NCBI GenBank assembly: GCA_017936605.1
Contig: JAGBFH010000022.1
Span: 916 to 64,915, forward strand
Source: Tidjanibacter sp.
Lineage (GTDB): Bacteria; Bacteroidota; Bacteroidia; Bacteroidales; Rikenellaceae
Direction of reading: 5' to 3'
Length of the DNA: 64,000 nucleotides
Below the pieces are notes generated by a model. The model was not told the DNA's origin, searched no databases, and saw nothing but the letters and a program-made list of their open reading frames with translations. This document shows, one piece after another, positions 2,062-61,747 of this stretch. The translations under genes and the position numbers were made by a program. Each line of letters begins with the position of its first letter. The stretch's first letter is position 1.

Positions 2062-2078
2062 AACGAGAGAGAAATAAT

Positions 2079-4469: not shown

Positions 4470-5210
4470 CTACCTAGTAAAACGTCGCCATTTTCTAACA
4501 AAGCGAGGCTCATAACTATATGTAGACTTATACTTACCTCTACTCGCCATTTGCGCTTTTCTTAAATGAGCCGATACTATATCATCATTGTAGCCATTGT
4601 ATGCCGATTGTTTCAACAAATTCATAACCTCCCACTTGTCGGTATATGGTGCTGGTGCCAACTCCGACATTGCATTCTTAATCAAATCAACCACCTGACG
4701 AGGATACACCACACGACAATTATAAGGCACATTGGAGATCTCTCTAATTTCGCTTGAGCCATCAAAGACAACGATTGAAAAGAAAGGTATGTTTTTTAGT
4801 TGTGGTAGTGCATTACGCAGTGCTTCAATATGCCTTTCATTTTGTTTAATTGGATTATAGAATTGGTGTTTTTCTTGACCATAAGCCAAAACTTTTGTCC
4901 ACTTATCGTGCAATCCATTACCAAATATCCAACCACTATAGTCTTTTACTTCAATAACAAATATTCCAACATTTGTTGTGACAACCAAATCTATTTGGGA
5001 ATGACCATTGGTAGTTGGAACATACAAATCGTGAAATATTGTATGAGGGGGAATACCTCCCCGTATTAGACGATACACGAGGTCTCTTTCAGAGTGCTCT
5101 CCTCTTGTCAAATCTGTAACCGTACTGATAACCTGCTGTTTTTGCTTTTCACGAGCACGGCTAACTATAAAGAGAATAAGTAGGGTGACAAATAGCAATA
5201 TCATTGTCAA
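4470..5210 (-). CDS. NERD (nuclease-related domain) protein with N-terminal membrane anchor
   Basis: GEHSE...HDLYVP...SQIDLVV...GIFVIEVKDYSGWIFG...FYNPIKQN; AT-rich relative to neighbours. Confidence 0.88.
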   Translation of the reverse strand: MTMILLFVTLLILFIVSRAREKQKQQVISTVTDLTRGEHSERDLVYRLIRGGIPPHTIFHDLYVPTTNGHSQIDLVVTTNVGIFVIEVKDYSGWIFGNGLHDKWTKVLAYGQEKHQFYNPIKQNERHIEALRNALPQLKNIPFFSIVVFDGSSEIREISNVPYNCRVVYPRQVVDLIKNAMSELAPAPYTDKWEVMNLLKQSAYNGYNDDIVSAHLRKAQMASRGKYKSTYSYEPRFVRKWRRFTR

Positions 5211-6660: not shown

Positions 6661-6674
6661 AGTTATTTTCATTC

Positions 6675-6790
6675 CAGGGGTTACAGGGGTTCCAGGGGTT
6701 CTCCCTAAATTCCTTAAGGTCCTTAAGGTCTTTAAGGTCCTTAAGGTCCTATAATCCTTTTGGCCCTTTTAGCCCTTTCGGCCCTTAAGG
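6675..6790. repeat. 9-bp-period intergenic mosaic repeat
   Basis: (CCAGGGGTT)n, (TAAGGTCCT)n, (GGCCCTTTT)n blocks. Confidence 0.85.
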
Positions 6791-6812
6791 AAATGCCCCT
6801 CGCGACACCCTA

Positions 6813-7499
6813 TCAACGAATGGAGTTCATACGGATACTCGCCTTCACAAAGGCCAGGGCCCTCACCTTCTCGATTTCGATATCCTTGTCGGCGTGGTGG
6901 GGATTCTGGCTCACGAGCTTTATGCACCCCGGGCGCTCGGACTTCTGGATGTACTTGACGGTCACATACTCCTCGCCCTCGAGGTCAATCGATAGGAGGT
7001 ACATATCGCCCCAGAAGATGTTGCTCCAGTCGTTCATCTGCTTGTAGAGCACAATATCGCCGCTCTTTAGGAGGGGGTACATACTGTCGCCCACAACATA
7101 AATCGCGCCATCGCACTTGGGCAGATTGGGGATGTGGATGTAGTCTATGGGCTGCACCTTCGTGGGGTCCATAAAGAGGGGCACAAGGCCCGCCGTACCC
7201 TCCATATTGTAGAGTGGAACGCTCTGCAAGGGCACAGTGTTGTCGGTGCGCTTGGTGAACTTCTGCCACTGCTCCTTGGGACAGTTGAACATCTCGCCCT
7301 TGCCGGTCTCGAGCCAGTCGGGATTGACATTCAAATCTTGAACAAGGATATTCTTGTTTCTCTCCGAGAGGGCAGCCTTGCCTGTCTCAATCATCGAGAG
7401 GGCACTCTTGCCCACTCCGAGCAGGGCAGCGAACTGCTCACCCGTCATTTCCAAATCTTTGCGAATTTTCTTTACGCGTACTCCCTTATTGTCAGCCAT
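6813..7499 (-). CDS. CI/LexA-like repressor: XRE HTH plus S24 autopeptidase
   Basis: HTH 'MTGEQFAALLGVGKSALSMIETG'; Ala-Gly site TAGL; GDSMYP catalytic Ser; VTVKY catalytic Lys. Confidence 0.9.
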   Translation of the reverse strand: MADNKGVRVKKIRKDLEMTGEQFAALLGVGKSALSMIETGKAALSERNKNILVQDLNVNPDWLETGKGEMFNCPKEQWQKFTKRTDNTVPLQSVPLYNMEGTAGLVPLFMDPTKVQPIDYIHIPNLPKCDGAIYVVGDSMYPLLKSGDIVLYKQMNDWSNIFWGDMYLLSIDLEGEEYVTVKYIQKSERPGCIKLVSQNPHHADKDIEIEKVRALAFVKASIRMNSIR

Positions 7500-7544
7500 A
7501 TACCTCGGGGTCTTAAAATTTTTATTCCGTTATGTGATACTAAA

Positions 7545-7559
7545 TTCAATTATTGAACA
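7545..7559. promoter_or_regulatory. Candidate repressor operator, copy 1
   Basis: Palindrome TTCAAT-T-ATTGAA(CA) abutting the + strand -7 element in the cI/terminase divergent region. Confidence 0.6.
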
Positions 7560-7604
7560 TATATTTGCACTGCAAAGTTAAGAAATTTATTTCTATTATA
7601 CAAA
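7560..7604. promoter_or_regulatory. Overlapping face-to-face promoters for the terminase unit (+) and cI (-)
   Basis: + strand TATATTTG at 7560-7567; - strand TAACTTTG at 7573-7580 with TTTG at 7601-7604 (20-nt spacing). Confidence 0.65.
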
Positions 7605-7623
7605 TATTTAATTAAATCCAACT

Positions 7624-8013
7624 ATGAAAAACACACCAGCAACCCCACAGCGACTGTTCGGTTTGGTGCCCAACGCCACCCATCCCGAGCAGGCAGAGAT
7701 TAGTTTCACCCCAACTCTCTACGCCGAGGTGCTCGAGTCGCTCTTGGAGCAGATTGCGGGCCTCAGCTACTTCAACGGCCGCATCTCAACCACCCACGAG
7801 GGCTTCAGTTCGGTGCTCACCGCCACACTCATCATCTACCACGACGACGAGGGGGACCTCCAAAGCCCCGTCAGGGACTTTGTGCCCATCTGGTGGGATA
7901 TGGAGAGTTTTCGTGACGATGAGTCGTCACCCCTTGCCCGCCCCGTCGGCAATGATTTCTCGCTCGCCCTGCTGCGCAAACTGCTCCGCGAGGGCGAACT
8001 ACCGCTGGATTAG
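7624..8013 (+). CDS. Hypothetical protein, first gene of the terminase transcription unit
   Basis: 129 aa, host-like codon usage, AACT-ATG start context; contains 'VPIWWD' and 'NDFS' segments. Confidence 0.7.
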   Translation: MKNTPATPQRLFGLVPNATHPEQAEISFTPTLYAEVLESLLEQIAGLSYFNGRISTTHEGFSSVLTATLIIYHDDEGDLQSPVRDFVPIWWDMESFRDDESSPLARPVGNDFSLALLRKLLREGELPLD

Positions 8014-8038
8014 TCGACCGACGACCGACTACCTACAA

Positions 8039-8146
8039 TAAGGTCCTTAGGGTCTTTAAGGTCCTTAAGGTCCTTAAAATCCTTTTTGCCCTTTTCGCCC
8101 TTTTCGCCCTTTTCGCCCTTTCTCAACTCTTAACCCTCAACCCTCA
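8039..8146. repeat. 9-bp and 7-bp period mosaic repeat between the orphan gene and terminase
   Basis: (TAAGGTCCT)n, (CGCCCTTTT)n, (AACCCTC)n. Confidence 0.85.
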
Positions 8147-8149
8147 ACT

Positions 8150-10207
8150 ATGACTTTTCTCGACTTTACCTCGCGGATGTTTCCTTCGTTCCGCACCACA
8201 CCATTCCACGCCCGCTACTATGCACTCCTTGAGGCCTTTGCCCAGGGGCGCATAAGGCGACTTATGATTACCATTCCGCCCCAGCACGGCAAATCGCTCG
8301 GCTCATCGGTGGCACTCCCCGCCTACCTCTTGGGCCTCAACCCCGACCTCCACATAGCCATTGCCTCCTATAGCGCCTCGCTGGCCCAGAAGTTCAACAA
8401 GCGTGTGCAGCGTCTTATAGACACTCCCGCCTATGCCGACATCTTCCCCGACACCACAATCAAGGCCGCAGGACGCTCGGGTGCCTACCAGCGCACAGCC
8501 GAGCTCACGGAGGTTGTGGGCCACACGGGCGACCTTGTGGCTGTGGGCAGAGAGGGCTCCCTGACTGGCAACCCTGTGGATGTGCTCATAATTGACGACC
8601 TCTACAAGGACGCAATGGAGGCCAACTCTCCCACCGTCAGGGAGAACTGCTGGGACTGGTACACCTCCGTTGTGCGCACCCGAGAGCACAACCTCTCGCG
8701 CGAACTTATTGTCTTCACCCGATGGCACAAGGAGGACCTGATTGGCCGCATCTACCAGAAAGAGAGGGTCGTGGAGCTCAAGAACTGGAGCGACATCGAC
8801 ACCCTCCCCGACGGCTGTTGGCTCCACCTGAACCTCGAGGCCCTCAAGACTACCCCCGCCACCGAGCTCGACCCTCGCGGGGTGGGCGAGCCACTCTGGG
8901 GCGAGCGCCACTCGGCCGAGCTGCTGAAGGAGAAACAGAGGCTCGACACGCTCCAATTCGAGGCTATGTATCAGGGGCGCCCGTCGGATGCTGCCGGCCT
9001 GCTCTATGGCGACAATTTTCAGACCTACTCGGCCCTGCCTGCTAAAAACGAAATCATCAGAAGGGCCAACTACACCGACACAGCCGATATGGGCGACGAC
9101 TACCTATGCTCGGTCTGCTACTCGGTGGGCACCGACGGCAACATCTACATCGAGGATGTGGTCTACTCGCGCGAGAAGATGGAGATAACCGAGCCTCTGG
9201 TGGCCGAGATGCTCACCCGCTGTGGCACTCCCGAGGCGACCATCGAGAGCAACAATGGCGGTCGCGGCTTTGCCCGCAACATCCAGCGCTTAGTACCCAA
9301 GTGCTCCATCGGGTGGTTCCACCAGAGCGCCAACAAGGAGTCGCGCATCCTTTCTAACGCCTCCACGGTGTTGCGTACGGTGCGTATGCCGGTGGACTGG
9401 AAGGAGCGGTGGGGCGATATGGCGGCCCACCTTATGGGATACAACCGCCGCTTCCGCACCAATCGCTGGCACGATGCAGCCGATGTGCTGACGGGCATCA
9501 TCGAGAGCGAGTGCAACCGCACCATTCGCAAACGCATCTACGGCACCTCCTTCTCCATACGCAACTATGTGCAGCCCAAGGAGCCCACCCCCACTCTCTC
9601 CTCGCGCCGCCTTACGGAGGCAGATTTTGAGGCTATGGCCGAGCGGTTGGGGGTGGAAAAGGCGGCCCTCAAGGCGGTTGTGGAGGTGGAGTGCTCCTCG
9701 CGTGGCGGCTTCCTCTTAGACGGCAGGCCACGCATACTCTTCGAGGGCCACATCTTCTGGCAACAGCTCCGCAAGAGGGGTTTCAGTCCCGAGAGTCTGC
9801 AAAAGGCCCACCCGTCAATCATCTATCCCAAGTGGGTGAGGACCCACTATCGTGGTGGTGCGGGCGAGTGGGAGCGCTTCTCGGAGGCGGCAGCCATCTC
9901 GCCCGAGGCGGCGGTGGAGTCGGCCAGCTGGGGTCTGTTCCAGATTATGGGCTTCCACTGGAGCACCTGCGGATGCGGCTCGGTGGAGGAGTTCAGAGAG
10001 CGTATGGAGAGGAGCGAGAGGGAGCAAATGGCCTTGGCAATGAATTTTCTTGAAAAAACGGGCATTGCAAAGTGGCTCAAAACAAAAGATTGGTGTAACT
10101 TTGCACTCAGATACAACGGCAGCGGCTACAAGGCCAATCGCTATGACCAGAAGCTCGCCGCCGCCTACAACAAGTTCAAACAACAAGAACAACACGCAAA
10201 GGAGTAG
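8150..10207 (+). CDS. Phage terminase large subunit fused to an N-acetylmuramidase (DUF3380-type endolysin)
   Basis: Walker A IPPQHGKS, Walker B LIIDD, TRWHKEDLIG, nuclease DTAD..GDDY, IESNNGG, HDAADV; from aa 488 LTEADF..LGVEKAALKAVVEVE..GGF...ILFEGHIF...SASWGLFQIMGFH...FALRYNGSGY. Confidence 0.9.
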   Translation: MTFLDFTSRMFPSFRTTPFHARYYALLEAFAQGRIRRLMITIPPQHGKSLGSSVALPAYLLGLNPDLHIAIASYSASLAQKFNKRVQRLIDTPAYADIFPDTTIKAAGRSGAYQRTAELTEVVGHTGDLVAVGREGSLTGNPVDVLIIDDLYKDAMEANSPTVRENCWDWYTSVVRTREHNLSRELIVFTRWHKEDLIGRIYQKERVVELKNWSDIDTLPDGCWLHLNLEALKTTPATELDPRGVGEPLWGERHSAELLKEKQRLDTLQFEAMYQGRPSDAAGLLYGDNFQTYSALPAKNEIIRRANYTDTADMGDDYLCSVCYSVGTDGNIYIEDVVYSREKMEITEPLVAEMLTRCGTPEATIESNNGGRGFARNIQRLVPKCSIGWFHQSANKESRILSNASTVLRTVRMPVDWKERWGDMAAHLMGYNRRFRTNRWHDAADVLTGIIESECNRTIRKRIYGTSFSIRNYVQPKEPTPTLSSRRLTEADFEAMAERLGVEKAALKAVVEVECSSRGGFLLDGRPRILFEGHIFWQQLRKRGFSPESLQKAHPSIIYPKWVRTHYRGGAGEWERFSEAAAISPEAAVESASWGLFQIMGFHWSTCGCGSVEEFRERMERSEREQMALAMNFLEKTGIAKWLKTKDWCNFALRYNGSGYKANRYDQKLAAAYNKFKQQEQHAKE

Positions 10208-10231: not shown

Positions 10232-12046
10232 ATGAAGACCCTCGAACTCCTCGCCCCCGCCAAGGACCTCGCCACCGCCCGTGCCGCCATCGACTCGGGT
10301 GCCGATGCGGTCTATATGGGCGGGCCGCGCCTGGGCGCACGAGCCGCCGCCACCAACTCTATGGAGGACATCCGCCAGGCGGCACGCTATGCCCACCTCT
10401 ACGGCGCAAGGCTCTATATGACAATGAACACCATCGTCTATGAGCACGAGTTGGAGGAGGCCCGCAAAATAGCCCAAGAGGCCATCGAGGCGGGTGTGGA
10501 TGCGCTCATCGTTCAGGATATGGCCTACTGCCGTATGGGGCTCGAGGGTGCCGAACTCCACGCCTCCACTCAGATGTACAACGCCTCGCCCGAGAGGGTC
10601 CGTTTCCTCGGTCAGGCGGGCTTTTCGCGAATAGTCCTCGAGAGGGGGCTTACGGCCGACCAGATGAGGGAGATATGCAGTGCCACCGACAAGGAGATTG
10701 AGGTCTTCATTCACGGGGCCATCTGCGTATGTGGCAGTGGCAGGTGTTATATGAGCCGTTCGCTCTCCCACCGCAGTGGCAATCGTGGCGAGTGCAGTCA
10801 GCCTTGCCGCCAGCGCTACGACCTGAGGGATGGCAGCGGCAAAATCATACGCAAAGGGCTACACCTCCTGTCGGTCAAAGACCTCGACCTTTCGGCCCAC
10901 ATTGGTGAACTCATAGATATGGGCGTGGTGTCGTTCAAGATTGAGGGCCGCCTGAAGGATGAGGCCTATGTGAGAAACATCACAGCCCACTACAGCCGTC
11001 TGCTCGACGAGGCCATAGCCGCTCGCAAGTGTTGCCGCAGGGCCTCCCGAGGGCGTGTGAGCCTCGACTTTAGCCCCTCGCCAGCCAAGACCTTCACCCG
11101 CAGTGGTGGCGACTACATCTTCCGCGGAAAGCGTGCGGGCCTCGCCTCGTTTGACACCCCCAAGGCTATGGGCGAACGACTCGGCAGGGTGACAAAGATA
11201 GTGGGGCGCAGTTTTCTGCTCGACAAAAAGAGTGACCTCGCCTCGGGCGACGGCATCTGCTTCATAGCCGCGGGCGAACTCGTGGGCACAAACATCAACT
11301 CAGCCGAGGCCGGCGGCCGCATAACCCCCAACAGGATGGAGGGCATTGCGGTGGGCACCGACATCTATCGCAACTACCACAAGGCCTTCTATGACACCCT
11401 CGGTGCAACTCGCACACGCCGTTCGATGCCCGTTTGGGCCACGCTCTCGACCGACAAAAAAGGCTGCACGCTCTCGCTACGCAATGAGGAGGGGACCATT
11501 GTGGAGGCCACCACAGACACCCACTTTGAGCCCGCAACCAAAGGCGAGATGGCCATAGGCTCCATAACCTCTTCGCTCCGCAAGAGCGGCTCATCGCCCT
11601 TCGATGTGGTGGATGTGGAGTTCCAGTTCGATGGGCCCGTGCCCTTCATCCCCACAGGAGCACTCAACGCCCTGCGCCGAGAGGCCCTCGAGAGGCTCGA
11701 GGAGCTGTTGCGCAACAGTCAGCCGCCGAAGAATATCGCCCCCGAGGACCCCACAGTTCCCTATTCCCTACGCACCATAGGTGGCGACCACAATGTTGCC
11801 AACTCGCTCGCCCGCCGATTCTACACCGACCACGGCGTGGAACGCATAGACGAGGGCTACGACCTGCTGCCCGACCTGGAGGGTGTGGAGGTTATGCGCA
11901 CCCCCTACTGCATACGCCGCGAGATTGGCCAGTGTCTGAAGCAGGGCTCACGACTCAAGGAGCCCCTCACACTCATCCACGGCACCGAGGAGTACCGCCT
12001 GCGCTTCGACTGCAAGGAGTGCTCAATGCACATTGAGAAAATGTAA
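10232..12046 (+). CDS. U32 family protein with DUF3656 domain (RlhA-like)
   Basis: ELLAPA, GADAVYMGG, HASTQ, HGAICVCGSGRCYMS, NRGECSQPCR, SFKIEGR. Confidence 0.88.
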   Translation: MKTLELLAPAKDLATARAAIDSGADAVYMGGPRLGARAAATNSMEDIRQAARYAHLYGARLYMTMNTIVYEHELEEARKIAQEAIEAGVDALIVQDMAYCRMGLEGAELHASTQMYNASPERVRFLGQAGFSRIVLERGLTADQMREICSATDKEIEVFIHGAICVCGSGRCYMSRSLSHRSGNRGECSQPCRQRYDLRDGSGKIIRKGLHLLSVKDLDLSAHIGELIDMGVVSFKIEGRLKDEAYVRNITAHYSRLLDEAIAARKCCRRASRGRVSLDFSPSPAKTFTRSGGDYIFRGKRAGLASFDTPKAMGERLGRVTKIVGRSFLLDKKSDLASGDGICFIAAGELVGTNINSAEAGGRITPNRMEGIAVGTDIYRNYHKAFYDTLGATRTRRSMPVWATLSTDKKGCTLSLRNEEGTIVEATTDTHFEPATKGEMAIGSITSSLRKSGSSPFDVVDVEFQFDGPVPFIPTGALNALRREALERLEELLRNSQPPKNIAPEDPTVPYSLRTIGGDHNVANSLARRFYTDHGVERIDEGYDLLPDLEGVEVMRTPYCIRREIGQCLKQGSRLKEPLTLIHGTEEYRLRFDCKECSMHIEKM

Positions 12047-52105: not shown

Positions 52106-52522
52106 CTACTCCGCCCTTCCAAAAAGGTTCTTTAGGCGACGGCCGAAGAGGAGCATAACATCCACAAAACGCCTTTCGCCCGTAACCACCGAGGCGTTCT
52201 CGAGATAGCTCCAGAACTCCACACCACAGACAAAGCCTGTGAAGAGGTTGGCAAGTCGCAGTTCGACAAAGGGTGAGGCGATGCCGTCGAGCAGCCAGGC
52301 CAGAACGATGCCCGCCATCACGAACGACAGTTTGCGGATAGTTTTCCAAGCCTTGCGGCTCTCGAAGCGCCAAGTGCGCCCCTCGGTGCGGGCCCTGCGA
52401 CGGTCTGCCAGAACTCCCGTGAGGAAGTCCACCGCCACGAACGCCATCGCACACACAAGCAAAGGCTCTACGGGTGCAAAGAGTGAGAGCACCCCCGTAA
52501 CGATTCCAGTCAAATACTTCAT
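52106..52522 (-). CDS. Phage holin (family 4-like)
   Basis: TM helices; VDFLTGV and EFWSYLEN motifs. Confidence 0.8.
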   Translation of the reverse strand: MKYLTGIVTGVLSLFAPVEPLLVCAMAFVAVDFLTGVLADRRRARTEGRTWRFESRKAWKTIRKLSFVMAGIVLAWLLDGIASPFVELRLANLFTGFVCGVEFWSYLENASVVTGERRFVDVMLLFGRRLKNLFGRAE

Positions 52523-52569
52523 TTTTTAGTTTTTAGTTTTCAGTTTTAAGTTCGTCAGTTTTCAGTTTG

Positions 52570-53049
52570 TCAGAGGACAATGCCGCCCGAGAGTGAGGTG
52601 CGGGAGCGCACATTCTCCTCGGGGGAGTAGAGGGGGCCGAGGGTGGGCAGCAGGGCGAGTTGCTCGGTGGCGGCATCGATGAGTGCCTCGGCGTCGTGGC
52701 GCAGTCGTCGTAGGGCCGCACGCATCGCCGCACTATCGGCCACCTCGAAGCTCTCGCCCGAGAGCCTCACGACACCCGCCGTGCCTACCTGTACGGCCAG
52801 CGAGGGCAAAACTACCGAGGCTACATAGAGTGCCAAGGGTACTTTAAGAAACTCCTCGGTAAACTTTGTGCACTCCTCCGAGGGGTTTTCGGCAACAAGC
52901 AGGTCGAAGAGCTCTCGGCCCACCACAGGGCGCAGAAAGCGTCGTTGGGCGGCAAGGATGGTGTGGGCGGGCACCGCCTCCTCGCGGAGGGTGTTGGTTG
53001 TGCCGAAGGCAATGGAGATGACCTCGGCAGAGGTGATGAGTTGTTTCAT
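52570..53049 (-). CDS. Putative head-tail adaptor/connector protein
   Basis: 159 aa, helical; directly downstream of the portal; AQRRFLRPVVGRELFD and KVPLALYV resemble Bacteroidetes phage adaptors. Confidence 0.55.
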   Translation of the reverse strand: MKQLITSAEVISIAFGTTNTLREEAVPAHTILAAQRRFLRPVVGRELFDLLVAENPSEECTKFTEEFLKVPLALYVASVVLPSLAVQVGTAGVVRLSGESFEVADSAAMRAALRRLRHDAEALIDAATEQLALLPTLGPLYSPEENVRSRTSLSGGIVL

Positions 53050-53055
53050 AGCTTC

Positions 53056-54300
53056 TTAGTCTACATTTTTGAGTCCATACTTGGTTACCTGTGCCACATA
53101 GTACTGCTCCTCGGGGTTTGTGGGGTCGTAGTCGAGGCCGTCGGCCTTGCGGGCCTCCCAAACACGCATATAGAGGGGCTTGGAGCGCGAGGGCGGGCGG
53201 TTGACAATCTCCAGTCGTGAGCCATCCTCACCCAGGATGGTGCTCACCAACGAGCGTATGGGCTCCATAAGCTCCTCCTGCTCGCCGAGGATGACCGTAT
53301 TGAGGGCCACCTCCCACTCGTGCAGGATGCGCTCCGAGGAGAAACCGCCGGCATAGTCGAGGCCGCTGAGGCTGCGGAACCACGAGTGGGCAATGACGAT
53401 GTCACCCGTAGCCTGGTCGTGGAGCTCGCGCCAGTCGCCCTCGTTGGTGGAGGTGATGGGGATGAAGCGCGAATTGTCGCCGTCGTCGCACTCCTTGACC
53501 ATAAACATCACCTGACCGGGCTTGCCCGAGAACTTGCGCTGTGCTGCGGCGGCCAGCTTCTCGGCCTCCTCCTCACTCTCCACGCCACCATCGAGGAGCA
53601 TCACACCCGAGAGCTGAAAGGAGTTATCCAGACGCGAGATGTTCCAGTTGTCGGTCTTGTAGGCGATGGTCGACACATTCATACCTGCAATGTAGGGCGG
53701 CACGCCATAGTGGGAGAACATAGGCTCGTAGTCCTTGTAGTGAATCATCGTGTGGAGGTTGCCATCGGCCCCCTGCTCGAAGAGCGGATAGAGTGGCACG
53801 CTAACCGCCTCGGAGCGCTGATAGCGGGTCCAGTCGTGGTGGAGCACCACGCGGCCTGAATCCTTGGCCAGTCGGCAACGCGAGGCATCCTGATGGAAGA
53901 GTGCCAGAAAGGAGTGGGCCGAGTCGGTCACTACCTCCACGAAAGCGTTGCCAAAGAGGCACTTATCGAAGGCCAGCTTATTGAGCACCTGACGCAACGA
54001 CTCGCCCTGAGAGTTGGCCTCCTCCACGAAGGCCTTGGTGCGGATGGCCTCATCGGGCAGGCTGAAGCCCGCACCCGAAATGTAGTCGGCCTTGTCGTTG
54101 ATGATGCGGCGGTGGGTTGTCGAGCAGCGCGACAGAAGCGAGAGGGCCAGGGGAAAGAGGTTGTCGCTACCCCAGTTCCAGACCTCGCCCTGCTTTGCGC
54201 CGGAGCCACCCACCTGAATGGGCAACCCGAGGCCCCCTATGGAGCTCTCGGCTCGAGGGGAGAAGATTTTGGGGGTATAGTTGATTTTTGATTTTTCCAT
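53056..54300 (-). CDS. Phage portal protein
   Basis: WGSDNLFP, STTHRRIINDKADYISG, FGNAFVEV, YGVPPY, NSFQLSGV, IVIAHSW. Confidence 0.8.
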   Translation of the reverse strand: MEKSKINYTPKIFSPRAESSIGGLGLPIQVGGSGAKQGEVWNWGSDNLFPLALSLLSRCSTTHRRIINDKADYISGAGFSLPDEAIRTKAFVEEANSQGESLRQVLNKLAFDKCLFGNAFVEVVTDSAHSFLALFHQDASRCRLAKDSGRVVLHHDWTRYQRSEAVSVPLYPLFEQGADGNLHTMIHYKDYEPMFSHYGVPPYIAGMNVSTIAYKTDNWNISRLDNSFQLSGVMLLDGGVESEEEAEKLAAAAQRKFSGKPGQVMFMVKECDDGDNSRFIPITSTNEGDWRELHDQATGDIVIAHSWFRSLSGLDYAGGFSSERILHEWEVALNTVILGEQEELMEPIRSLVSTILGEDGSRLEIVNRPPSRSKPLYMRVWEARKADGLDYDPTNPEEQYYVAQVTKYGLKNVD

Positions 54301-54331
54301 TTTTCGCTTGAAGGTTAATGGGTTAAAGATG

Positions 54332-54360
54332 AAAAAGGGGCCCGAAACGAGAGGCCCCTT
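54332..54360 (-). terminator. Internal terminator after the capsid and putative major tail genes
   Basis: On - strand AAGGGGCC-N10-GGCCCCTT followed by TTT. Confidence 0.7.
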
Positions 54361-54374
54361 AGGATTCTTTTGCG

Positions 54375-54863
54375 CTACAGTTCGAGGGGACTAAAGGGGG
54401 TCGCACTCCAACCATCCTTCGAGCCGAGGAGCATCCTCACCGTAGGGTTGTCGCTACGCTTTGTGGCGCTGTCGCCCTCGGCCTCCAGCAGCCTCAGGGG
54501 ATAATCGGCACCACCGCGGGGCGAGCACCCAACAACAAAACTCCTACCCGAGGTGAGAGTGAGTACGGCGACCACACCCTGACGGCTGAGGGCTCTTACC
54601 TGTCCGAGCAACTCGGTCCTTAGACCACTCACGACCATCTCGAGGTGGTGCTCCACCCCACCCTCGGAGTCTATGCGCTCGAGATAGCGGGCTCCGCCAT
54701 CGGCAAAATAGACCTCCAGAGGGGTCGCCTCGGGCGCCAGACTACAGTTCGTAAAGCCCGCCGAGGAGCGGTAGCCCCCGAAGCTCACATCGTCCACCTT
54801 GTAGAGGACCACCGAGCGCAAGCCCCCGAAATTACGAGAGCACGATGCAGAGGAGCCTTCCAT
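54375..54863 (-). CDS. Putative major tail (tube) protein
   Basis: 162 aa right after the capsid gene; N-terminal CSRNFGGLRSVVLY pattern typical of Bacteroidetes siphovirus tube-like proteins. Confidence 0.5.
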   Translation of the reverse strand: MEGSSASCSRNFGGLRSVVLYKVDDVSFGGYRSSAGFTNCSLAPEATPLEVYFADGGARYLERIDSEGGVEHHLEMVVSGLRTELLGQVRALSRQGVVAVLTLTSGRSFVVGCSPRGGADYPLRLLEAEGDSATKRSDNPTVRMLLGSKDGWSATPFSPLEL

Positions 54864-54865
54864 AA

Positions 54866-56089
54866 CTACTCAATCGGGAACAACATCTCGCCAGCCTTGA
54901 CAAGAGTCAGTCTATACATCGTTGCGCCCTCCACCGAGAACTCAATCTCATTGTGACCCTCATAGAGGCACAGGGACTCACCTTCAATGATGGGCTCGTA
55001 GTTGTCGTCATAGGCAAAGGCCCAAATCTCTTCTGCCCAGGGCTCAGGGGTGTTGCAGTTGCACTCAATCTTCAGCACATCGCCATCAAGAGAGCTCTCC
55101 AGATGGCCAAGGGGAGCACCCACAGCAAAGGAGAGAAGCTCGGGCAGGAGGTAGTCGCAACCGGCCATAAAGATTGCCCTCTGGCGGTTCTCCATAAGGT
55201 CGGGGTTGTACCACATACGCACCTCGGTGCCGGGCATATCGTTGGTGTTGACAGCCAGGGCGAGGTTGCGGCGGTCGGTGAGCAGTGCGAAGGAGCCGGG
55301 CAGGTCGAGGGCCTGCTCCTTGTAGCCGTTGAGCTGCACATCTACCACGGGGATGCCGCGATAGAAGAGCCCGTCACGGCCCTGCTGCTTGGCCAGATAG
55401 GCGGCCTCAATGGCCACACCATCGAGCTCCTCCTCGTAGGCATTGTAGACATCGGTGGTCACAAAGAATGCCAACTGGCCCTCCGAGCGCAAGGAGCGCA
55501 ACTCCTCGGTGGCGTTATCCCAGAGCCTCTTCAGAACGGCCTCGGCCCAACCGCTCTTGCCTTCATTCACATAGGCAAAGCGGCGAATCTCCTCCTCGTT
55601 GCAGTCGTAGACAATCTGCTTGACGAAGCCGTCGAAGGTGTCCAATACGCCATTGTCACGATCTCGGTTGCCATACCACATTGTGGCCCTCACGCTCTCG
55701 GCAATGGAGGCTCTGAAGAGCGAGGTCTCGGCCTCCTCGAGCTCGGTGCCCGAGAGGTCGTCGAGGTTCACATCCGCACGACCTGTGATGAGCTCATAGA
55801 CGGTCGAGAAGTAGTTGTCGGCCGCATAGGCCATCTCGGCCTTGACCTTGTGGAGCTTCATCTCCTTCTGGAACTTGTCGGCAGGCGCACCGCCGCTCCA
55901 GCCACTGGAGGTGAAGCGATTGAGGATGTTGCCGTCGCGCTTCCAGAAGTGGAGCGTGGTGGGCACGGGCATATTGTACATCACTTTGATGCCGAGCTGC
56001 TCGGCGTTGCTACCGGTGAGCATAGGGCGGAAAAAGATGTTGTCGAGCCTCTGTCCCGAGTAGGTCTTGATACTTTCGATTTTACTCAT
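54866..56089 (-). CDS. Major capsid protein with ~80-aa C-terminal extension
   Basis: Follows the ClpP-type protease; capsid-like segments MWYGNR..TFDGFVKQI, FFVTTDVYNAYEE, YRGIPVV, NLALAVNT, RAIFMAG. Confidence 0.7.
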   Translation of the reverse strand: MSKIESIKTYSGQRLDNIFFRPMLTGSNAEQLGIKVMYNMPVPTTLHFWKRDGNILNRFTSSGWSGGAPADKFQKEMKLHKVKAEMAYAADNYFSTVYELITGRADVNLDDLSGTELEEAETSLFRASIAESVRATMWYGNRDRDNGVLDTFDGFVKQIVYDCNEEEIRRFAYVNEGKSGWAEAVLKRLWDNATEELRSLRSEGQLAFFVTTDVYNAYEEELDGVAIEAAYLAKQQGRDGLFYRGIPVVDVQLNGYKEQALDLPGSFALLTDRRNLALAVNTNDMPGTEVRMWYNPDLMENRQRAIFMAGCDYLLPELLSFAVGAPLGHLESSLDGDVLKIECNCNTPEPWAEEIWAFAYDDNYEPIIEGESLCLYEGHNEIEFSVEGATMYRLTLVKAGEMLFPIE

Positions 56090-56124
56090 TGTTGTCTTGT
56101 TGTTTTTTTAGTGATTAATTGGTT

Positions 56125-56400
56125 GTTTTTGGGGGATTGCAAGGGGGGTAAGGGGTTGCAAAGGGTTGTAGGGGAATTTAGGGAGTTTAGGGAGTTTAGG
56201 GAGTTTAAGGTCCTTAAGGTCTTTAAGGTCTTTAAGGTCCTTAAGGTCCTTAGGGTCCTTAAGGAAAACTCCCATTTCTCTCATTTCTCTCATTTCTCCC
56301 ATCTCTCCCATCTCTCCCATTTCTCCCATTTCTCCCATTTCTCCCATTTCTCCCATTTTCTGCCGAGGCAAAACCCTCTACAATCAACCCTCAACTCCTC
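56125..56400. repeat. Host 9-mer mosaic inside the phage-like operon
   Basis: (TTAGGGAGT)n, (TAAGGTCCT)n, (TTCTCCCAT)n between the protease and capsid genes. Confidence 0.9.
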
Positions 56401-57352
56401 TTCTTATGGCCTCTCGGAGGCTCTCCATATCGGCTGCATAGGCTCCGCTGTTGCCCGAGAGTTTGGGCACACCGTTGGGTGCGGGGTCGTCGCACTCCTT
56501 CACGCGGGTGGGCTCGGCCGTATGGAGTCTCGAGGGTGGCATTGGGGGGCTCTGCTGCTCACTCTTCTCGGCCTGCGAAGGGGCCACTGAGGGACCACCG
56601 TTGGCGGAGGTGGCATTGACGGGTAGGGGGTTGTTCTTTGCAAGGCCCACACGCTTTAGGACCCTACCCCACGCCTCCGAAAGACGCTCAGCGAGGGGCT
56701 TGGGAGGTAGGGGTGTGAGCCCCAGGAGGGCAATCTGGCCACGAGCGTCGTCGGTGATGGGCGAGGAGGCTATGATGCTGTCCACCAATCCCGCCTCCAG
56801 ACACTCCTCGGGCGAGAGCCACACACCCTTGCCACCATTGCGGTTCATCAGCTGGCGATACTCCTCGGGGGTGCGACCCGCAGCAAGGGCATATATCTCC
56901 GCCAGACGCTCGTCGCTCTTGTCGAGAAGCTCTTTGGTGGCGGCCAGTGAGTGGCTGTTGCCCTCCACGGCGCTCTCGCAGCAGTGTATGAGGTAGAGTG
57001 CGTTGGCCGAGATTTCGCGGCACCCCTTGGAGGCGGCCTGAGCGATGATGGTTGCGGCCGAGGCCACATAGCCGTAGCAGCGGGTGATGACCTCCACGCC
57101 CAGCTCGCGTGCCGCATCGTAGATGAGTAGTGCATCGGCCAGACAGCCGCCCGTCGAGCGGATATTGAGCACCAGTCGGTCCACACCGCCACTCTGGCGA
57201 ATCTCCTCCAGCGCACTCTCGAAGCGCTCGTAGGTGGCCACGCGGCCATCTTCGGTGCCGAACTGTTCCACCTCGGGGGTGCCGAGTATGCCGTCGATGT
57301 CGATGGTGGCGACCCTCAGCGAGGTGGCGATTTTGTTGTTTGATTCTTCCAT
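56384..57352 (-). CDS. ClpP-type prohead protease with C-terminal scaffold-like tail
   Basis: IDIDGILG, LNIRSTGG, GYVASAATII (catalytic Ser), YLIH (His), WLSPEECLEAGLVDSI; Pro-rich tail. Confidence 0.88.
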   Translation of the reverse strand: MEESNNKIATSLRVATIDIDGILGTPEVEQFGTEDGRVATYERFESALEEIRQSGGVDRLVLNIRSTGGCLADALLIYDAARELGVEVITRCYGYVASAATIIAQAASKGCREISANALYLIHCCESAVEGNSHSLAATKELLDKSDERLAEIYALAAGRTPEEYRQLMNRNGGKGVWLSPEECLEAGLVDSIIASSPITDDARGQIALLGLTPLPPKPLAERLSEAWGRVLKRVGLAKNNPLPVNATSANGGPSVAPSQAEKSEQQSPPMPPSRLHTAEPTRVKECDDPAPNGVPKLSGNSGAYAADMESLREAIRRGVEG

Positions 57353-57378
57353 AATCTTTCTTTTCTTAATCGGTTTTC

Positions 57379-57639
57379 TTATCGGTAGATGTAGCCTACG
57401 ACCGTTCCGTAGGAGCAGTTTACGGCCTCGGCGACCAGGTGCATAGCCTCTATCTTGGGCACCCCCTGCCGCTGGAGCTGAGCCACTCGCTCACGCACAA
57501 CAAAGGCCTTGGCGGCCGAGGGGGCTATAAGGCCGTTGGAGATGAGGAACTCTATGGTCCCACACGAGGTCATCCCCCTGCAACGGGAGAGCAACAGGGC
57601 CTCCACATCACGATCCAACTTGGTTTGCGCGGCTGCCAT
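57379..57639 (-). CDS. Small protein with a possible C-terminal HTH
   Basis: 86 aa; VPKIEAMHLVAEAVNCSYGTVVGYIYR; ATG overlaps the upstream TGA. Confidence 0.65.
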   Translation of the reverse strand: MAAAQTKLDRDVEALLLSRCRGMTSCGTIEFLISNGLIAPSAAKAFVVRERVAQLQRQGVPKIEAMHLVAEAVNCSYGTVVGYIYR

Positions 57640-57806
57640 CACTCCACAATGTTTGCTTGTTCCACAACGGCCCTGACGGCCTGCTGAGCTGCTGTTATCT
57701 CGCTCTCCAGGACATAGACCTTCACTTGTCTAAGGGCCGAGGCGATGGCCGAGGCGAGCTCCTCGATGGTGAGGCTCACGGTTTTGGTTTCGGGATTGTA
57801 ATTCAT
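57639..57806 (-). CDS. 55-aa protein resembling a tape-measure C-terminus (not in the ORF track)
   Basis: Manual translation MNYNPETKTVSLTIEELASAIASALRQVKVYVLESEITAAQQAVRAVVEQANIVE; host codon bias; TGA overlaps the next ATG. Confidence 0.7.
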   Translation of the reverse strand: MNYNPETKTVSLTIEELASAIASALRQVKVYVLESEITAAQQAVRAVVEQANIVE

Positions 57807-57839
57807 AACGCTTGCAATGTTTTCTTCTCATTCTTCACA

Positions 57840-60221
57840 CTAAATTGTCGTCAGCACAACCTTGGTCGAGGGGCTCGCGGGGTTGTAGTCCACAATCTCC
57901 TCCAGTCGGCAGAGCACGGGCTCACCGTCAATCTTCACCAGGTAGTGGGCCCTAAAGTCGTGCTTTGTGCTGTTGGGGACCACAATCTGCTCCACCTCAT
58001 CTGGGCGCAGAGATACATAAAGAGAGAGGCGACGCGAGTGGTTGAGCGTATCTACACGCTGCCTCCAGTAGCGCTCGAGCCCCTCGACCCCCTCGCGGTC
58101 ACAGAAGAGCAGCGAGGAGGGCTCGCCCGCAAGGGACCCATCGTCGAAGAAGGTCAGAAGCGGATACTCTCGCCCCATACCCGAGGGGTACTCTAAGCTC
58201 TCGCCCACAGGGAGGGTCTTGAGTCCGCGGTAGTGGACAATCTTGGGCAGGAAGTTGTGGTAGTGGAGCGCCTCGGTCGCGGAGCTCTGCTTGTCGCCCA
58301 CCATCAGCAGTGAGGCCGAGGGCGAGGCCGAGAGGGTGCCCGAGGTGGTGAGGGAGGCTGTAAAGAGGCTGTTTTCGACCCTGCGGGTGCCCTCGGTGGC
58401 GAAGATGTTCTCTATGGCTGCACTCCACGCGCCATACTCCTCACCCGCCTCACTCTGCTCCTCGAGCTCTTCGACCGCCCTATCACCCTGACGATAGGTT
58501 AGCTGGAGCCTCTGGTGGTGGTCGCCACCAAGTTCCTCAACCACAATACCCTTTGTCACATCCACCCTCTCGGACCAATCTACCACCACCCGCGGGTCGC
58601 ACCACTCGCTGCGGGGCTCAATGCAGACCTTTCTGTCGAGCGGGTCGGTGTAGATTTGTAGGTCGAAGAGCTCCTTGAGGGCGGTGAGCAGGTCGAGCCC
58701 CGTGAAGGGGTAGTTCATAACATCGCGCCAGGAGAGTTCCGCACCCTCGGCAGGATGGGGTATGAAGATGGGGCGCAGGCTACTACCCCTGAGGAGCCTC
58801 ACCTCCAGCGGCTCTGCGGGGCCCATAAAGCAGAACATATCGAAGTACTTGGGCTCCTCGGGCGAGCACTCGCGGGCCTTGGAACGCAGGGTCACATCAA
58901 TCATCGTGTCGCCATACTCGTGGACATTGCCATCATAGATGGCCCAGTCCGACATAGGGAAGTAGGCGATGCCATCTCGGACCATCTCCAGACGCGCTCC
59001 GATGACGGGCCCAGAGAAGGAGTGAGAGAAGGTACCCTCACGGAAGGTTGTGGAGAGCAGTCGGTGCTCCTCGTAGTCGTCGGGGGTGAGGTTTGCGGGG
59101 TTGGCATTGGGATTGGTGATAACCTTGGCGTAGAGGTTATACTCGGCCCCCTCCACCATATCGAACACTATCAGCGTGTAGGTGTGATTGGCCTCCAGAG
59201 GGTACTTGCGATGGTCGGTGAAGGTGTTGCGGATGGGCACCACCACCCTATCTCCAAAGGAGGGCTGTATGGTCGAGAGGCCCTCGAGCAGCTCACGGCT
59301 CTTTATGCGGTAGCCGGTTTGGAGGCGCAGTCGGTGCTCAAAGGCCACCCACACCGGAGTGGTGGGGGTGAAGCAGATGCGCCCTGTGGAGTCCACCCCG
59401 AAGCAGCCACGATTGTAGCTCCCGTGCTCACCGTCGGGCACATCGACCAGATTGCCCACAGTCGCAAAATTGGCCAAGTGGTCGGCGTAGACCCTGCCGA
59501 ACTCATCGGCAAGAGCCACCGCCGAGTCCTCCTTCTTGAAGGCCAGGAAGTCCATCTTCTCACCCCACCCCTCATAGCTCCGCTCGCTCCATCGGCCGCT
59601 CATATAGAGCCCTCTGAAGAAGTCCGAGTCCATAAATTCCGACTCAACGGCATAGCCTGCCTTGGCGAAGATGGCCCTCACAAGCAGACCGATATTAACG
59701 AACGGGTGGTAGCTATCGGGCAGGAGGCGGTTGTGGTGGCCCTCGTCGCACACCCTACCCTCGTGCTCCACGGGAAAGAACTTCAGCATCGACTCCCCTC
59801 CTTGCAGTCCCTCACGGATAGCATCCTCGGTGTAGCTGAAACTCTCCTCGGGCAGCAGAGCCTGAATACTCTCGGCGGCGACCTTCACCCACTCGCGAGC
59901 ATTGCCGATGATATTGAAGCGATAGAAGCCCTCGGGGCCCAGTTGCGAGGCTGTGAGATAGATTGTGCCCTCCAGAATCACACACCCATCCTCCTCCACG
60001 CGTCCGGTGTGGAGCGTGTGGTTGAACATCCCAGCCGTCAGCGGTTGTTCGCAATCCCCCATAAGGCTGCGGTTGAGCGGTGTAGAGGGAATGGTGATAC
60101 TCTTGGAGTAGCCCGCACGGCCCCACGAAGTAGAGGTGAGCGAGGCCATAGAGAGCGAGATGGATATCTCCGAGGAGGTGTCCATATCGGCCTCCACATT
60201 GTCTATAAAGAGTTTTATCAT
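57840..60221 (-). CDS. Phage tail protein (baseplate/hub-like)
   Basis: MIKLFID..ADMD...RAGYSKSITIPSTPLN N-terminus and PLDRKVCIEPRSEW...VVDWSERVD, as in Bacteroidetes siphovirus tail proteins. Confidence 0.7.
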   Translation of the reverse strand: MIKLFIDNVEADMDTSSEISISLSMASLTSTSWGRAGYSKSITIPSTPLNRSLMGDCEQPLTAGMFNHTLHTGRVEEDGCVILEGTIYLTASQLGPEGFYRFNIIGNAREWVKVAAESIQALLPEESFSYTEDAIREGLQGGESMLKFFPVEHEGRVCDEGHHNRLLPDSYHPFVNIGLLVRAIFAKAGYAVESEFMDSDFFRGLYMSGRWSERSYEGWGEKMDFLAFKKEDSAVALADEFGRVYADHLANFATVGNLVDVPDGEHGSYNRGCFGVDSTGRICFTPTTPVWVAFEHRLRLQTGYRIKSRELLEGLSTIQPSFGDRVVVPIRNTFTDHRKYPLEANHTYTLIVFDMVEGAEYNLYAKVITNPNANPANLTPDDYEEHRLLSTTFREGTFSHSFSGPVIGARLEMVRDGIAYFPMSDWAIYDGNVHEYGDTMIDVTLRSKARECSPEEPKYFDMFCFMGPAEPLEVRLLRGSSLRPIFIPHPAEGAELSWRDVMNYPFTGLDLLTALKELFDLQIYTDPLDRKVCIEPRSEWCDPRVVVDWSERVDVTKGIVVEELGGDHHQRLQLTYRQGDRAVEELEEQSEAGEEYGAWSAAIENIFATEGTRRVENSLFTASLTTSGTLSASPSASLLMVGDKQSSATEALHYHNFLPKIVHYRGLKTLPVGESLEYPSGMGREYPLLTFFDDGSLAGEPSSLLFCDREGVEGLERYWRQRVDTLNHSRRLSLYVSLRPDEVEQIVVPNSTKHDFRAHYLVKIDGEPVLCRLEEIVDYNPASPSTKVVLTTI

Positions 60222-60250
60222 AGCGATTTCTTATCAGTTATTGTTGGGTT

Positions 60251-61243
60251 CTACCATAGTTGACTCTTTCTCGAGGGGCGCAGGGTCACATCTATCGACA
60301 TAGCCCCCTCGCCACTACATCTACACACCGACTCCTCAATGGTGCAGGGCCTCCACTCATCGCCCTCGAGCCTCCAGAGGCGGGGTGCCGAAGTAAGCCC
60401 CCTCACAAAGTCCATCTCGCCACGCGAGAGCAGACCGCTACGGAGCCTCAGGCGACTCCAACTCTCCACCGCGAGTGTGTGGGTGCCACTCAGGGTGTCG
60501 CTCTCGCGCCTCTCCACCTGCTGGTGCTCCTCGGGCTGCGAGCGGAAGGTGTAGTGGCGCACAGCACCATAGGCATCGAGCCACGCCACACGACAATCCC
60601 CCTTTGCCGACGGCACCACAAGGTAGTCAATGACACCCTTGAGCAGGCCGCCAATCCACACCCTCAGATCCAACTCCACACTCTCCTCCTGCTGGTCGAG
60701 TGCCGAGCGCAAATCCTCAAACGAGTAGGTCAGCGTATAGAGGCCCGAGGAGGGGCACACATAGCGCAGCAGACGCTCGGAGGTGTCGCTCTGGGGGGTT
60801 GTAACATCCACAATGACACCATCATCCTCCTTCAGATAGAGCGACAATTCGTCAAACTCGTCGGGAGAAATGACCCTTCGCTGTCGGGCAGGACCCACCA
60901 TTGCCGAGGGCTCCAAGGCCACCACATTGGCCCCAAACCTCGCCAGAGCACTTCGCTCTCCATCCTCACCCACGGCAACACTCAGTGCCACCTGGCGACC
61001 CGCGGGCTGCTCCAACCTCAGAGAGCCTCGCACCACTGGCTGGGGGTCCAACATACGACGAATGATTGCTCGGGGCGAGGAGTCAATCACCGAACGCCCC
61101 GCATAGCGACGAGCACCCAACCTCTGGCCCTCGCTGTCGAAGAAGTATATCTCGGTACTCTCCGCAGGGTCCACCTCCTCGAAATGGAAATAGTTGTCGG
61201 CCAAAATGGGGCTAAAGTCGGCCGGAATAGATATCAATTTCAT
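60251..61243 (-). CDS. Phage tail protein (distal-tail-like)
   Basis: C-terminal VAWLDAYGAVRHYTF...LRSGLLSRGEMDFVRGLTSAPRLW pattern. Confidence 0.6.
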   Translation of the reverse strand: MKLISIPADFSPILADNYFHFEEVDPAESTEIYFFDSEGQRLGARRYAGRSVIDSSPRAIIRRMLDPQPVVRGSLRLEQPAGRQVALSVAVGEDGERSALARFGANVVALEPSAMVGPARQRRVISPDEFDELSLYLKEDDGVIVDVTTPQSDTSERLLRYVCPSSGLYTLTYSFEDLRSALDQQEESVELDLRVWIGGLLKGVIDYLVVPSAKGDCRVAWLDAYGAVRHYTFRSQPEEHQQVERRESDTLSGTHTLAVESWSRLRLRSGLLSRGEMDFVRGLTSAPRLWRLEGDEWRPCTIEESVCRCSGEGAMSIDVTLRPSRKSQLW

Positions 61244-61261
61244 AAGTTCAGTATTTTAACT

Positions 61262-61672
61262 TTAGTTCATACACTCCACACACTCCATCCTCAAACTGAG
61301 GCTCACGGCACACTCGCCCGCAATGGTGAGCATACGCTCCTCGGGCTTGAGCTCCAGAAGCTCCACCGCGGCCACAGATGAGGCCTCACCCAAGAGCGCC
61401 ACAAAACTCCCTGCCGAGTCCATCAGCGAGGCCATAGCCTCACGCCTCGACTTAGCACCTATTACATTGTCGCTCATTAGTTTAATTGTGACATCATACT
61501 GCACCCTGCGCTCCTTTTCGCCCTCCATAGAGCCGGCTTCCGCCCAGGCAAAAGAGGCCATCGGAAAGCCTTTGGATAGTAGCGTTTGATGAAGGTCCGA
61601 CTCGAGGGTCGGATTGTACCCGAGGCTCTCGGCAATGGACCATAGGGCCGTAAATAAGGATTTGTAACTCAT
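61262..61672 (-). CDS. Putative tail completion/terminator protein
   Basis: 136 aa, first gene of the operon; size and alpha/beta pattern fit, no firm motif. Confidence 0.45.
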   Translation of the reverse strand: MSYKSLFTALWSIAESLGYNPTLESDLHQTLLSKGFPMASFAWAEAGSMEGEKERRVQYDVTIKLMSDNVIGAKSRREAMASLMDSAGSFVALLGEASSVAAVELLELKPEERMLTIAGECAVSLSLRMECVECMN

Positions 61673-61702: not shown

Positions 61703-61718
61703 GTTCAATTTCTGAACA
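61703..61718. promoter_or_regulatory. Candidate repressor operator, copy 2
   Basis: GTTCA-ATTTC-TGAAC(A); 13/15 identical to 7545-7559; overlaps the predicted transcription start. Confidence 0.6.
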
Positions 61719-61747
61719 AAGGTAGTGCAAGCAGCGCCGCTTGTCAA
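61717..61747 (-). promoter_or_regulatory. Promoter of the phage-like structural operon
   Basis: - strand TTGA (61744-61747), 19 nt, TACCTTTG (61717-61724). Confidence 0.7.

Follow-up and report, generated by a model that had tools for sequence, protein, structure and literature searches.

A CI-type repressor, an orphan gene and a terminase-muramidase gene as the candidate control, packaging and lysis arm of an inherited phage-derived particle system in Tidjanibacter

The window, by which we mean the whole 64-kb stretch of DNA analysed here, comes from contig C11 of a 1.88-Mb, 99.6%-complete genome of Tidjanibacter (Rikenellaceae) whose closest relatives are Tidjanibacter metagenome-assembled genomes from ruminant guts, with Alistipes next. 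The element of interest, locus A (6813-10207), consists of a repressor gene (rep) on the minus strand, a divergent control region of 124 bp, an orphan gene on the plus strand, a 136-bp spacer, and a second plus-strand gene that joins a large terminase subunit (TerL) to a muramidase. A preliminary description of this DNA had recognised here an XRE-S24 repressor with an Ala-Gly site, a catalytic Ser (GDSM) and a Lys (TVK), transcribed divergently from an orphan gene and a terminase-endolysin gene and set between a PAP2 phosphatase and a U32 gene. Coordinates and family matches agree with this arrangement, and all of the named residues are present. The features of locus A are as follows.

6813..7499, minus strand: rep, encoding Rep (228 residues), an XRE-type helix-turn-helix (HTH) joined to an S24 self-cleaving peptidase; Pfam and PHROG.
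7188-7193, within rep: Ala103-Gly104 (EGTAGLVP), read from the sequence.
7083-7085, within rep: Ser139 (GDSM), read from the sequence.
6954-6956, within rep: Lys182 (TVK), read from the sequence.
7624..8013, plus strand: orphan gene, 129 residues, first gene of the operon predicted to be repressed; family-less, with orthologues in place.
8150..10207, plus strand: open reading frame of the TerL-muramidase fusion, 685 residues; Pfam and PHROG.
8150..9583, plus strand: TerL domain, residues 1-478; PHROG 38, Pfam Terminase_6N and T7 RNaseH-like.
9584..9610, plus strand: linker PTPTLSSRR in place of the terminase stop codon; comparison with the sister clade.
9611..10207, plus strand: PF11860 N-acetylmuramidase (endolysin) domain, residues 488-685, and the stop codon; Pfam.

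Rep matches Pfam HTH_3 (E 2.4e-9) and Peptidase_S24 (E 2.9e-13), and the PHROG 4 family 'transcriptional repressor' with an E-value of 7e-34. Its Ala-Gly site lies about 35 residues ahead of the Ser of a Ser/Lys dyad, the layout of a self-cleaving S24 protein, and the HTH, Ala103-Gly104, Ser139 and Lys182 are invariant in 34 orthologues. We take the cleavage-site and dyad residues to be the counterparts of those in LexA. As far as its sequence can tell, Rep retains every feature required for self-cleavage. Orthologues with 60-92% identity are found family-wide, divergent from TerL and 0.7-2 kb away from it, and are absent or distant in genomes without the element. Rep is the sole XRE-S24 protein of its genome, in which the other S24 matches are UmuD and one weak, sub-threshold hit. 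A search of the PDB gave a match to a single regulator, confined to the HTH region, and nothing on the S24 part. A umuD/umuC pair (UmuD by NCBIfam) is present at 1627-3344, 3.5 kb from rep.

The orphan protein has no match in Pfam, PHROG or NCBIfam, and a search of 5.8 billion proteins returned three relatives. Its orthologues hold the same position in every genus examined in which the element is split between two sites, and share the conserved core motifs VPVWWE and NDFSF. The AlphaFold2 model, with a predicted local distance difference test score (pLDDT) of 82.8, has a helix at either end of three long strands; it found no match at E 0.001 in the PDB or BFVD, and on this predicted structure an HTH protein is ruled out. 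The gene occupies the position of cro in phage lambda, and a small terminase, a Cro and an activator are all candidate readings of its product.

The terminase part matches PHROG 38 over residues 3-460 (E 1.6e-84). Its Walker A (G47-K48-S49), Walker B (D149-D150) and nuclease (D310/D313) residues do not vary among 41 orthologues, and the genome has no other TerL of this family. The nearest phage relatives are Bacteroides fragilis B40-8-like siphoviruses (46-50% identity); with B40-8 itself, TerL is the only gene shared. The muramidase part aligns with 174 of the 175 positions of PF11860 (residues 504-677, E 3.2e-66) and resembles the endolysins of known structure 7q4s, 5nm7 and 7rum (E 2e-38 to 9e-33). 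Its VEVE(C)S motif, which aligns with V.KVES of 7q4s and may hold the catalytic Glu, is unchanged in 12/12 fused copies read.

A match over the full 685 residues is restricted to the closest Tidjanibacter: 13 genomes, this one included, in a family sample of 201 Rikenellaceae genomes, and about 17 contigs in a species collection. In all 12 fused relatives whose junction was read, the frame runs from one part into the other through a Pro-rich linker whose length varies (about 8-35 residues). TerL of the sister clade terminates at NYVKPKE(N) and a stop codon, and the muramidase there is a free gene of 200-220 residues beyond PAP2. No PF11860 gene was found in the more distant Tidjanibacter or in any other genus examined; five other genera have a PHROG 873 endolysin directly after the holin and one has an SLT transglycosylase there, neither of which is present in this genome. 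This comparison of sequences marks the terminase-lysin fusion as young. The different lysins in different genera indicate that the lysis cassette has been rebuilt more than once, and here the only recognisable lysin rides on the terminase. The preliminary description had counted the endolysin as part of the module, which is right for this genome in its fused form but describes a recent state of part of the genus, other lysins following the holin elsewhere. Holin lesions pass endolysin fusions much larger than this one, so a fused lysin could work; cleavage at the linker may provide an alternative to the intact fusion.

The second locus of the window is a phage-type structural operon.

52106..61672, minus strand: structural operon B; family matches; between groEL and rimP-nusA-infB.

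Operon B has 11 open frames: proteins of 136, 330, 793 and 87 residues, a ClpP-type prohead protease, a further 87-residue frame, a capsid-like protein, a 162-residue protein, a portal, a DUF6712 protein and a holin (PF05105). Family searches of the operon found no terminase and no lysin, in agreement with the preliminary description, which had noted a holin and a portal in it without an endolysin or a terminase. For the 793-residue protein, the AlphaFold2 model (pLDDT 79) shows a fold like those of the tail-tip hubs lambda gpJ, Mu gp44 and VgrG. The 87-residue frame in the gap between protease and capsid (56108-56371) was rejected as a gene, its translation matching 9-bp tandem intergenic arrays elsewhere in the genome. 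Apart from this spurious frame and the holin, the genes of operon B are single-copy in the genome. The holin has a paralogue, 39% identical, in an unrelated prophage on another contig, C10. This prophage, at about 12.4-52 kb of C10 and thus outside the window, is a true one, with an integrase, HicA/HicB, a reverse transcriptase that is possibly part of a diversity-generating retroelement, tail-fibre-like genes and a portal-like protein (PHROG 22277). Its GC content at third codon positions (GC3) is 0.5-0.6, compared with a host-like 0.7-0.8 at both locus A and operon B. Neither of these two loci has an integrase or replication genes.

Each of the 201 genomes was searched with TerL, capsid and Rep. 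TerL was detected in 176 and the capsid in 167; both occur in 166 genomes, TerL alone in 10, the capsid alone in one and neither in 24, and the seven genera without TerL are the same seven that are without the capsid. Most of the TerL-only genomes are incomplete. The two loci are therefore not distributed independently. More than one copy per genome is very rare and similarity values group by genus, as expected under vertical inheritance. A search of about 298 genomes from further Bacteroidales families found no capsid. Two genera have TerL, protease, capsid, portal and DUF6712 side by side on the same strand, one of them together with a divergent repressor beside TerL; both genera lack the tail-tip protein and are thus head-only. 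Their DUF6712 homologue (L043, 5841-6824; L052, 2373-3521) is 2-3 times longer and contains a low-complexity insert rich in Ser, Thr, Glu and Asp. In other genera the loci lie between 10 kb and about 750 kb apart, and here the distance is 44 kb. The gene order of operon B starts where that of the locus A operon ends, and the simplest reading is one ancestral operon broken after TerL. Co-occurrence, contiguity in two genera and an operator shared in Tidjanibacter (described below) all bear out the earlier proposal that the two loci are complementary.

Selection was assessed from the ratio of nonsynonymous to synonymous substitution rates (dN/dS) against same-genus orthologues. The ratio is 0.05-0.13 in most comparisons for Rep, 0.09-0.23 for TerL, 0.11-0.27 for the muramidase domain and 0.27-0.56 for the orphan, compared with 0.17-0.21 for the housekeeping neighbour U32, all of these values being rough because dS is about 1 and near saturation. 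Invariant motifs and low dN/dS point to working genes, not remnants. The two loci could in principle be unrelated, decaying prophage remnants that ended up as neighbours by chance, since 44 kb separate them, some 40 kb of it taken up by ordinary genes, and many functions of a phage are absent. This would have to accommodate their family-wide co-occurrence in single copy, their intact frames, low dN/dS and shared operator, and the contiguous arrangement in two genera; prophage remnants were rejected on distribution and selection, and we find the idea hardly credible. What is found instead is a set of phage-derived particle genes without integration or replication genes, vertically inherited and under purifying selection, a pattern that gene transfer agents share. 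Such agents also package random host DNA, in pieces too small for their own genes, and deliver it to recipients; the lack of a small terminase described below is compatible with packaging of this kind but is no evidence for it. We consider it very probable that both loci form one system and that Rep is its own repressor.

A phage satellite is a further possibility for a compact gene set of this kind. Capsid-forming phage-inducible chromosomal islands (cf-PICIs) carry a small set of head, portal, protease and terminase genes, few or no tail genes, and a repressor. The present system differs in having no integrase, att site or replication module, in occupying two sites, and in being fixed across a family. 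Locus A moreover directly borders a host gene on either side, the PAP2 phosphatase (5221-6672) at a distance of 140 bp and peptidase U32 (10232-12046) at 24 bp, and a satellite of either the PICI or the cf-PICI type was rejected on these grounds. Next to PAP2 there is a NERD-domain nuclease gene (4470-5210) with a GC3 of 0.32 against values near 0.75 around it, which for this reason is probably a recent acquisition. The 136-bp spacer between the orphan and TerL is composed of 9-bp tandem words. Such words (AAGGTCCTT, GCCCTTTTC and similar) occur at 6675-6800, 8039-8149 and 61880-62140; the same word families border the repressor-orphan unit left and right and also occur ahead of the operon B promoter.

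The predicted control of the two loci is centred on a palindrome, TTCA-N5-TGAAC, that abuts or overlaps the -7 box at both promoters. The sites and promoter elements concerned are listed here, palindromes being given without strand.

7545..7558: O_A, TTCAATTATTGAAC, flanked by the rep start codon and the -7 box of the promoter for the orphan and terminase genes.
7560-7567, plus strand: rightward -7 box TATATTTG, read from the sequence.
7573-7580, minus strand: leftward -7 box TAACTTTG, read from the sequence.
7330..7343: operator-like palindrome in the rep coding sequence, TTCAAATCTTGAAC, third match of the weight matrix, 215 bp from O_A.
61703..61717: O_B, GTTCAGAAATTGAAC on the operon strand, directly after the -7 box TACCTTTG (61717-61724).
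61742-61747: TTGACA box of the operon B promoter, from the sequence.
61245-61261: weaker operator-like site at the junction of the first two operon B genes, 16.8 bits in the weight matrix.

The two divergent promoters of locus A overlap at 7560..7580, and both blocks are kept across genera. Both -7 boxes fit the Bacteroidetes consensus TAnnTTTG. O_A abuts the rightward box and lies downstream of the leftward one, a placement in which a bound dimer would block the orphan/terminase promoter and also obstruct the rep transcript. TTCA-N5-TGAA occurs 12 times in the genome; three occurrences are intergenic, and two of these are the promoters of locus A and operon B. With the flanking C there are three distinct sites in the window where 0.32 are expected, the observed count being reached in 0/100 shuffles. 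A position weight matrix (PWM) made from the sites of the genus was then scanned over the 1.88-Mb genome. O_A (26.3 bits) and O_B (24.3 bits) rank highest, their rank being partly built in as the matrix includes both, and are followed by the site within rep at 7330 (21.2 bits) and that at 61245 (16.8 bits). All four are in the particle system and every further match is at or below 16 bits.

These sites are well conserved in the genus. O_A occurs at a fixed position in 24/26 Tidjanibacter genomes, exactly in 22 and with one mismatch in two, and cultured Alistipes also carry it, at 25-30 bits. Around the start of operon B, 17/18 Tidjanibacter genomes have a single site in the 2-3 kb covered, in a constant arrangement of TTGACA-N17-TAnnTTTG and operator about 25-45 bp ahead of the first gene; the TTGACA lies exactly 17 nt before TAnnTTTG in all 18 Tidjanibacter genomes with an operator site. 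O_B is kept although the first protein of the operon is only 24-43% identical across Tidjanibacter. Conserved palindromes therefore sit on both promoters of the predicted Rep targets. To our knowledge TTGACA is not the usual Bacteroidetes -33 element, and a dedicated factor may thus read the operon B promoter. Similar cTTGACAA boxes are found ahead of the operon in three other genera. As for the palindrome within rep, it arises from a Val (GTT) and a Leu (TTG) codon that most orthologues retain in spite of a GC3 near 0.75 and a dS near 1; this pattern is suggestive of an auxiliary second operator, perhaps for looping.

Judged from the top four PWM matches, the Rep regulon is predicted to comprise the particle genes, without repair or translesion genes. 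This bears on the possibility that Rep is a general SOS regulator, a non-canonical LexA, with the particle genes forming part of a wider damage regulon. The non-canonical LexA proteins of Bacteroidetes are XRE-S24 proteins with the operators CTAA-N5-TTAG, TTAC-N5-GTAA and GGA-N5-TCC, and they have been proposed to descend from phage repressors (PMC8565304). Rep is like them in its XRE HTH and S24 domains, in its dyad-N5-dyad operator TTCA-N5-TGAA and in having a site in its own promoter (PMC8565304); it is also the only XRE-S24 protein in the genome and is very strongly conserved, more so than TerL. Against such a role, the particle system contains all four of the best operator matches of the 1.88-Mb genome; the PWM scan found no Rep operator upstream of umuDC in this same window, the NCBIfam LexA model does not match Rep, and the genera without a Rep orthologue are precisely those without the element. 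We therefore think a general SOS role quite improbable. With a predicted regulon limited to the particle system and an orthologue that vanishes with the element, Rep is better regarded as a dedicated phage-type repressor, of the kind ancestral to these regulators, than as a cellular SOS master regulator.

Taken together, these results lead us to read locus A as the arm for control, packaging and lysis of a phage-particle system that has been domesticated, is passed on vertically and is confined to Rikenellaceae. With the mechanism set out below included, we put the probability of this reading at roughly 0.7. The head and tail-tip cluster and locus A would then be one old, inherited, phage-derived system and a candidate gene transfer agent. 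The model builds on what sequence and comparison show about the identity of the parts, the unity of the loci, purifying selection, the conservation and placement of the operators and the restricted predicted regulon; binding of Rep to the operators, the RecA trigger, the packaging of DNA and its delivery by particles are steps that we infer.

In this model a Rep dimer binds TTCA-N5-TGAAC and holds both promoters shut. The site of locus A falls between the -33 and -7 elements of the promoter for the orphan and terminase genes, and at about +10 to +22 in the rep transcript, so that binding would shut the packaging and lysis genes and limit the level of Rep itself. A second copy of the site, in Tidjanibacter, overlaps both the -7 box and the start point of the strong TTGACA-N17-TAnnTTTG promoter that is predicted to drive the head, tail-tip and holin operon. 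DNA damage would activate RecA, and Rep would be cleaved at Ala103-Gly104 by the Ser139/Lys182 dyad, the most likely route to its loss, upon which both operons would fire together. Procapsids would assemble and be filled with DNA by TerL; the holin would then open the membrane, and the TerL-fused muramidase could reach the wall and lyse the cell, releasing the particles. We favour RecA as the trigger by a small degree only. Gene transfer by the particles is a more doubtful proposition, which we put forward tentatively.

Rep could instead be a real repressor that responds to something other than DNA damage, for instance an anti-repressor, a role that the orphan protein might fill, a protease of stationary phase or stress, or infection by a phage, and the output might be abortive-infection lysis or helper-dependent capsids. 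The orphan, in its cro-like position and with no known fold, would suit such a scheme, as would the lack of a tail tube, tape measure and small terminase and the head-only form of two genera; known gene transfer agents, moreover, are mostly under host signals other than damage. The invariance of the Ala-Gly, Ser and Lys residues in 34 orthologues argues otherwise, since it implies that self-cleavage is under selection, and the integrase, att site and replication genes that satellites carry are missing. We consider a trigger other than damage unlikely.

Several observations count against the system as we describe it, besides the near-saturation of dS noted above. No tail tube or tape measure was recognised in operon B, the hub-like tail-tip protein being the only tail part identified. 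A search of the genome with a profile made from TerS-like genes (four genomes, three genera) gave no small terminase (best E 9). Those genes (PHROG 309, E 2.6e-8; L041, 4619-5248, and L038, L046 and L048) lie between the orphan and TerL in these three other genera; neither Tidjanibacter, the Alistipes loci examined nor one additional genus has them. The preliminary description had held that locus A supplies exactly what the structural operon lacks; this is borne out for the large terminase and the lysin but not for the small terminase, which is found at neither locus. Two Alistipes-like genomes, G110 and G151, both 99% complete, retain Rep and TerL intact and lack capsid and portal throughout, which would fit either a recent loss of the structural operon or a use for locus A of its own, the latter in keeping with a trigger and output other than those of our model. 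A genome scan also marked a single TAG in the match span of two fused relatives; the junction is open in both, and the TAG is probably the terminal stop at the end of the match. As to the control scheme, most Alistipes-like genomes and several other genera lack an operator at the structural operon. Outside Tidjanibacter such a site was found with one mismatch in one genus and in 2/19 Alistipes-like genomes, and not elsewhere. Control of the whole family through a shared operator was therefore dropped as an explanation, the operator at operon B being mostly a matter of Tidjanibacter. On the evidence of the operator sequences, direct double control is established for Tidjanibacter only, with weaker signs in one other genus; it is either a feature of Tidjanibacter or was lost elsewhere, and in the other genera a product of locus A may act as a relay.

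By analogy, the nearest known counterparts would be multi-locus gene transfer agents, including one from the gut, and the PrtR type of pyocin control. The former are exemplified by RcGTA of Rhodobacter capsulatus (PMC5026251), CcGTA of Caulobacter (PMC9632790) and the gut FpGTA of Faecalibacterium (PMC12946183). The present system resembles them in having head, packaging and lysis genes without an integrase or replication genes, at more than one chromosomal site, with clade-wide vertical inheritance and purifying selection; its lysis genes likewise lie apart from the head genes and its control is linked to a repressor. As in FpGTA, the structural operon is about 10 kb. It differs in belonging to Bacteroidota, with a terminase nearest to those of Bacteroides siphoviruses; no sequence relationship to the three agents was found, though none was searched for. 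It also retains a phage-type S24 repressor of its own in addition to any host regulators, has no recognisable small terminase or tail tube, carries a terminase-lysin fusion in one subclade, and is so far a candidate for the packaging and transfer of host DNA by which gene transfer agents are defined.

The repressor itself can be compared with lambda CI, LexA and PrtR, the last of which controls the pyocins of Pseudomonas. Rep shares with these an N-terminal HTH, the Ala-Gly site, the Ser/Lys dyad, palindromes that overlap promoters, and a divergent arrangement predicted to be self-regulating, and like PrtR it would control a domesticated phage-derived particle. Unlike them it has one main operator per promoter, not a triple array, with a possible extra site within its gene, and the divergent gene does not encode an HTH protein of the Cro type.

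The papers searched contained no report of a domesticated phage-particle system in Bacteroidota, Rikenellaceae or Alistipes. With some reserve, we suggest that this may be the first gene-transfer-agent-like system of Bacteroidota, present in Rikenellaceae including cultured human-gut Alistipes, with a CI-type repressor that would make particle release a branch of the DNA-damage response, and that one lineage may have welded the motor to the endolysin, so that packaging and lysis would be produced in fixed proportion from one repressed promoter. The in-frame terminase-endolysin fusion, found across many species, is an unusual architecture and directly testable. Rep would represent a phage repressor that still governs only phage-derived genes, the ancestral type proposed for the SOS regulators of Bacteroidetes (PMC8565304). 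With one repressor, one 14-bp operator and two promoters, and with the same module in cultured Alistipes, among them A. timonensis DSM 25383 and A. montrealensis kh20, the system offers a clean experimental handle. Alistipes and its relatives are abundant in the gut, and if the particles do move host DNA, they would provide a path for gene exchange there that reacts to DNA-damaging drugs.

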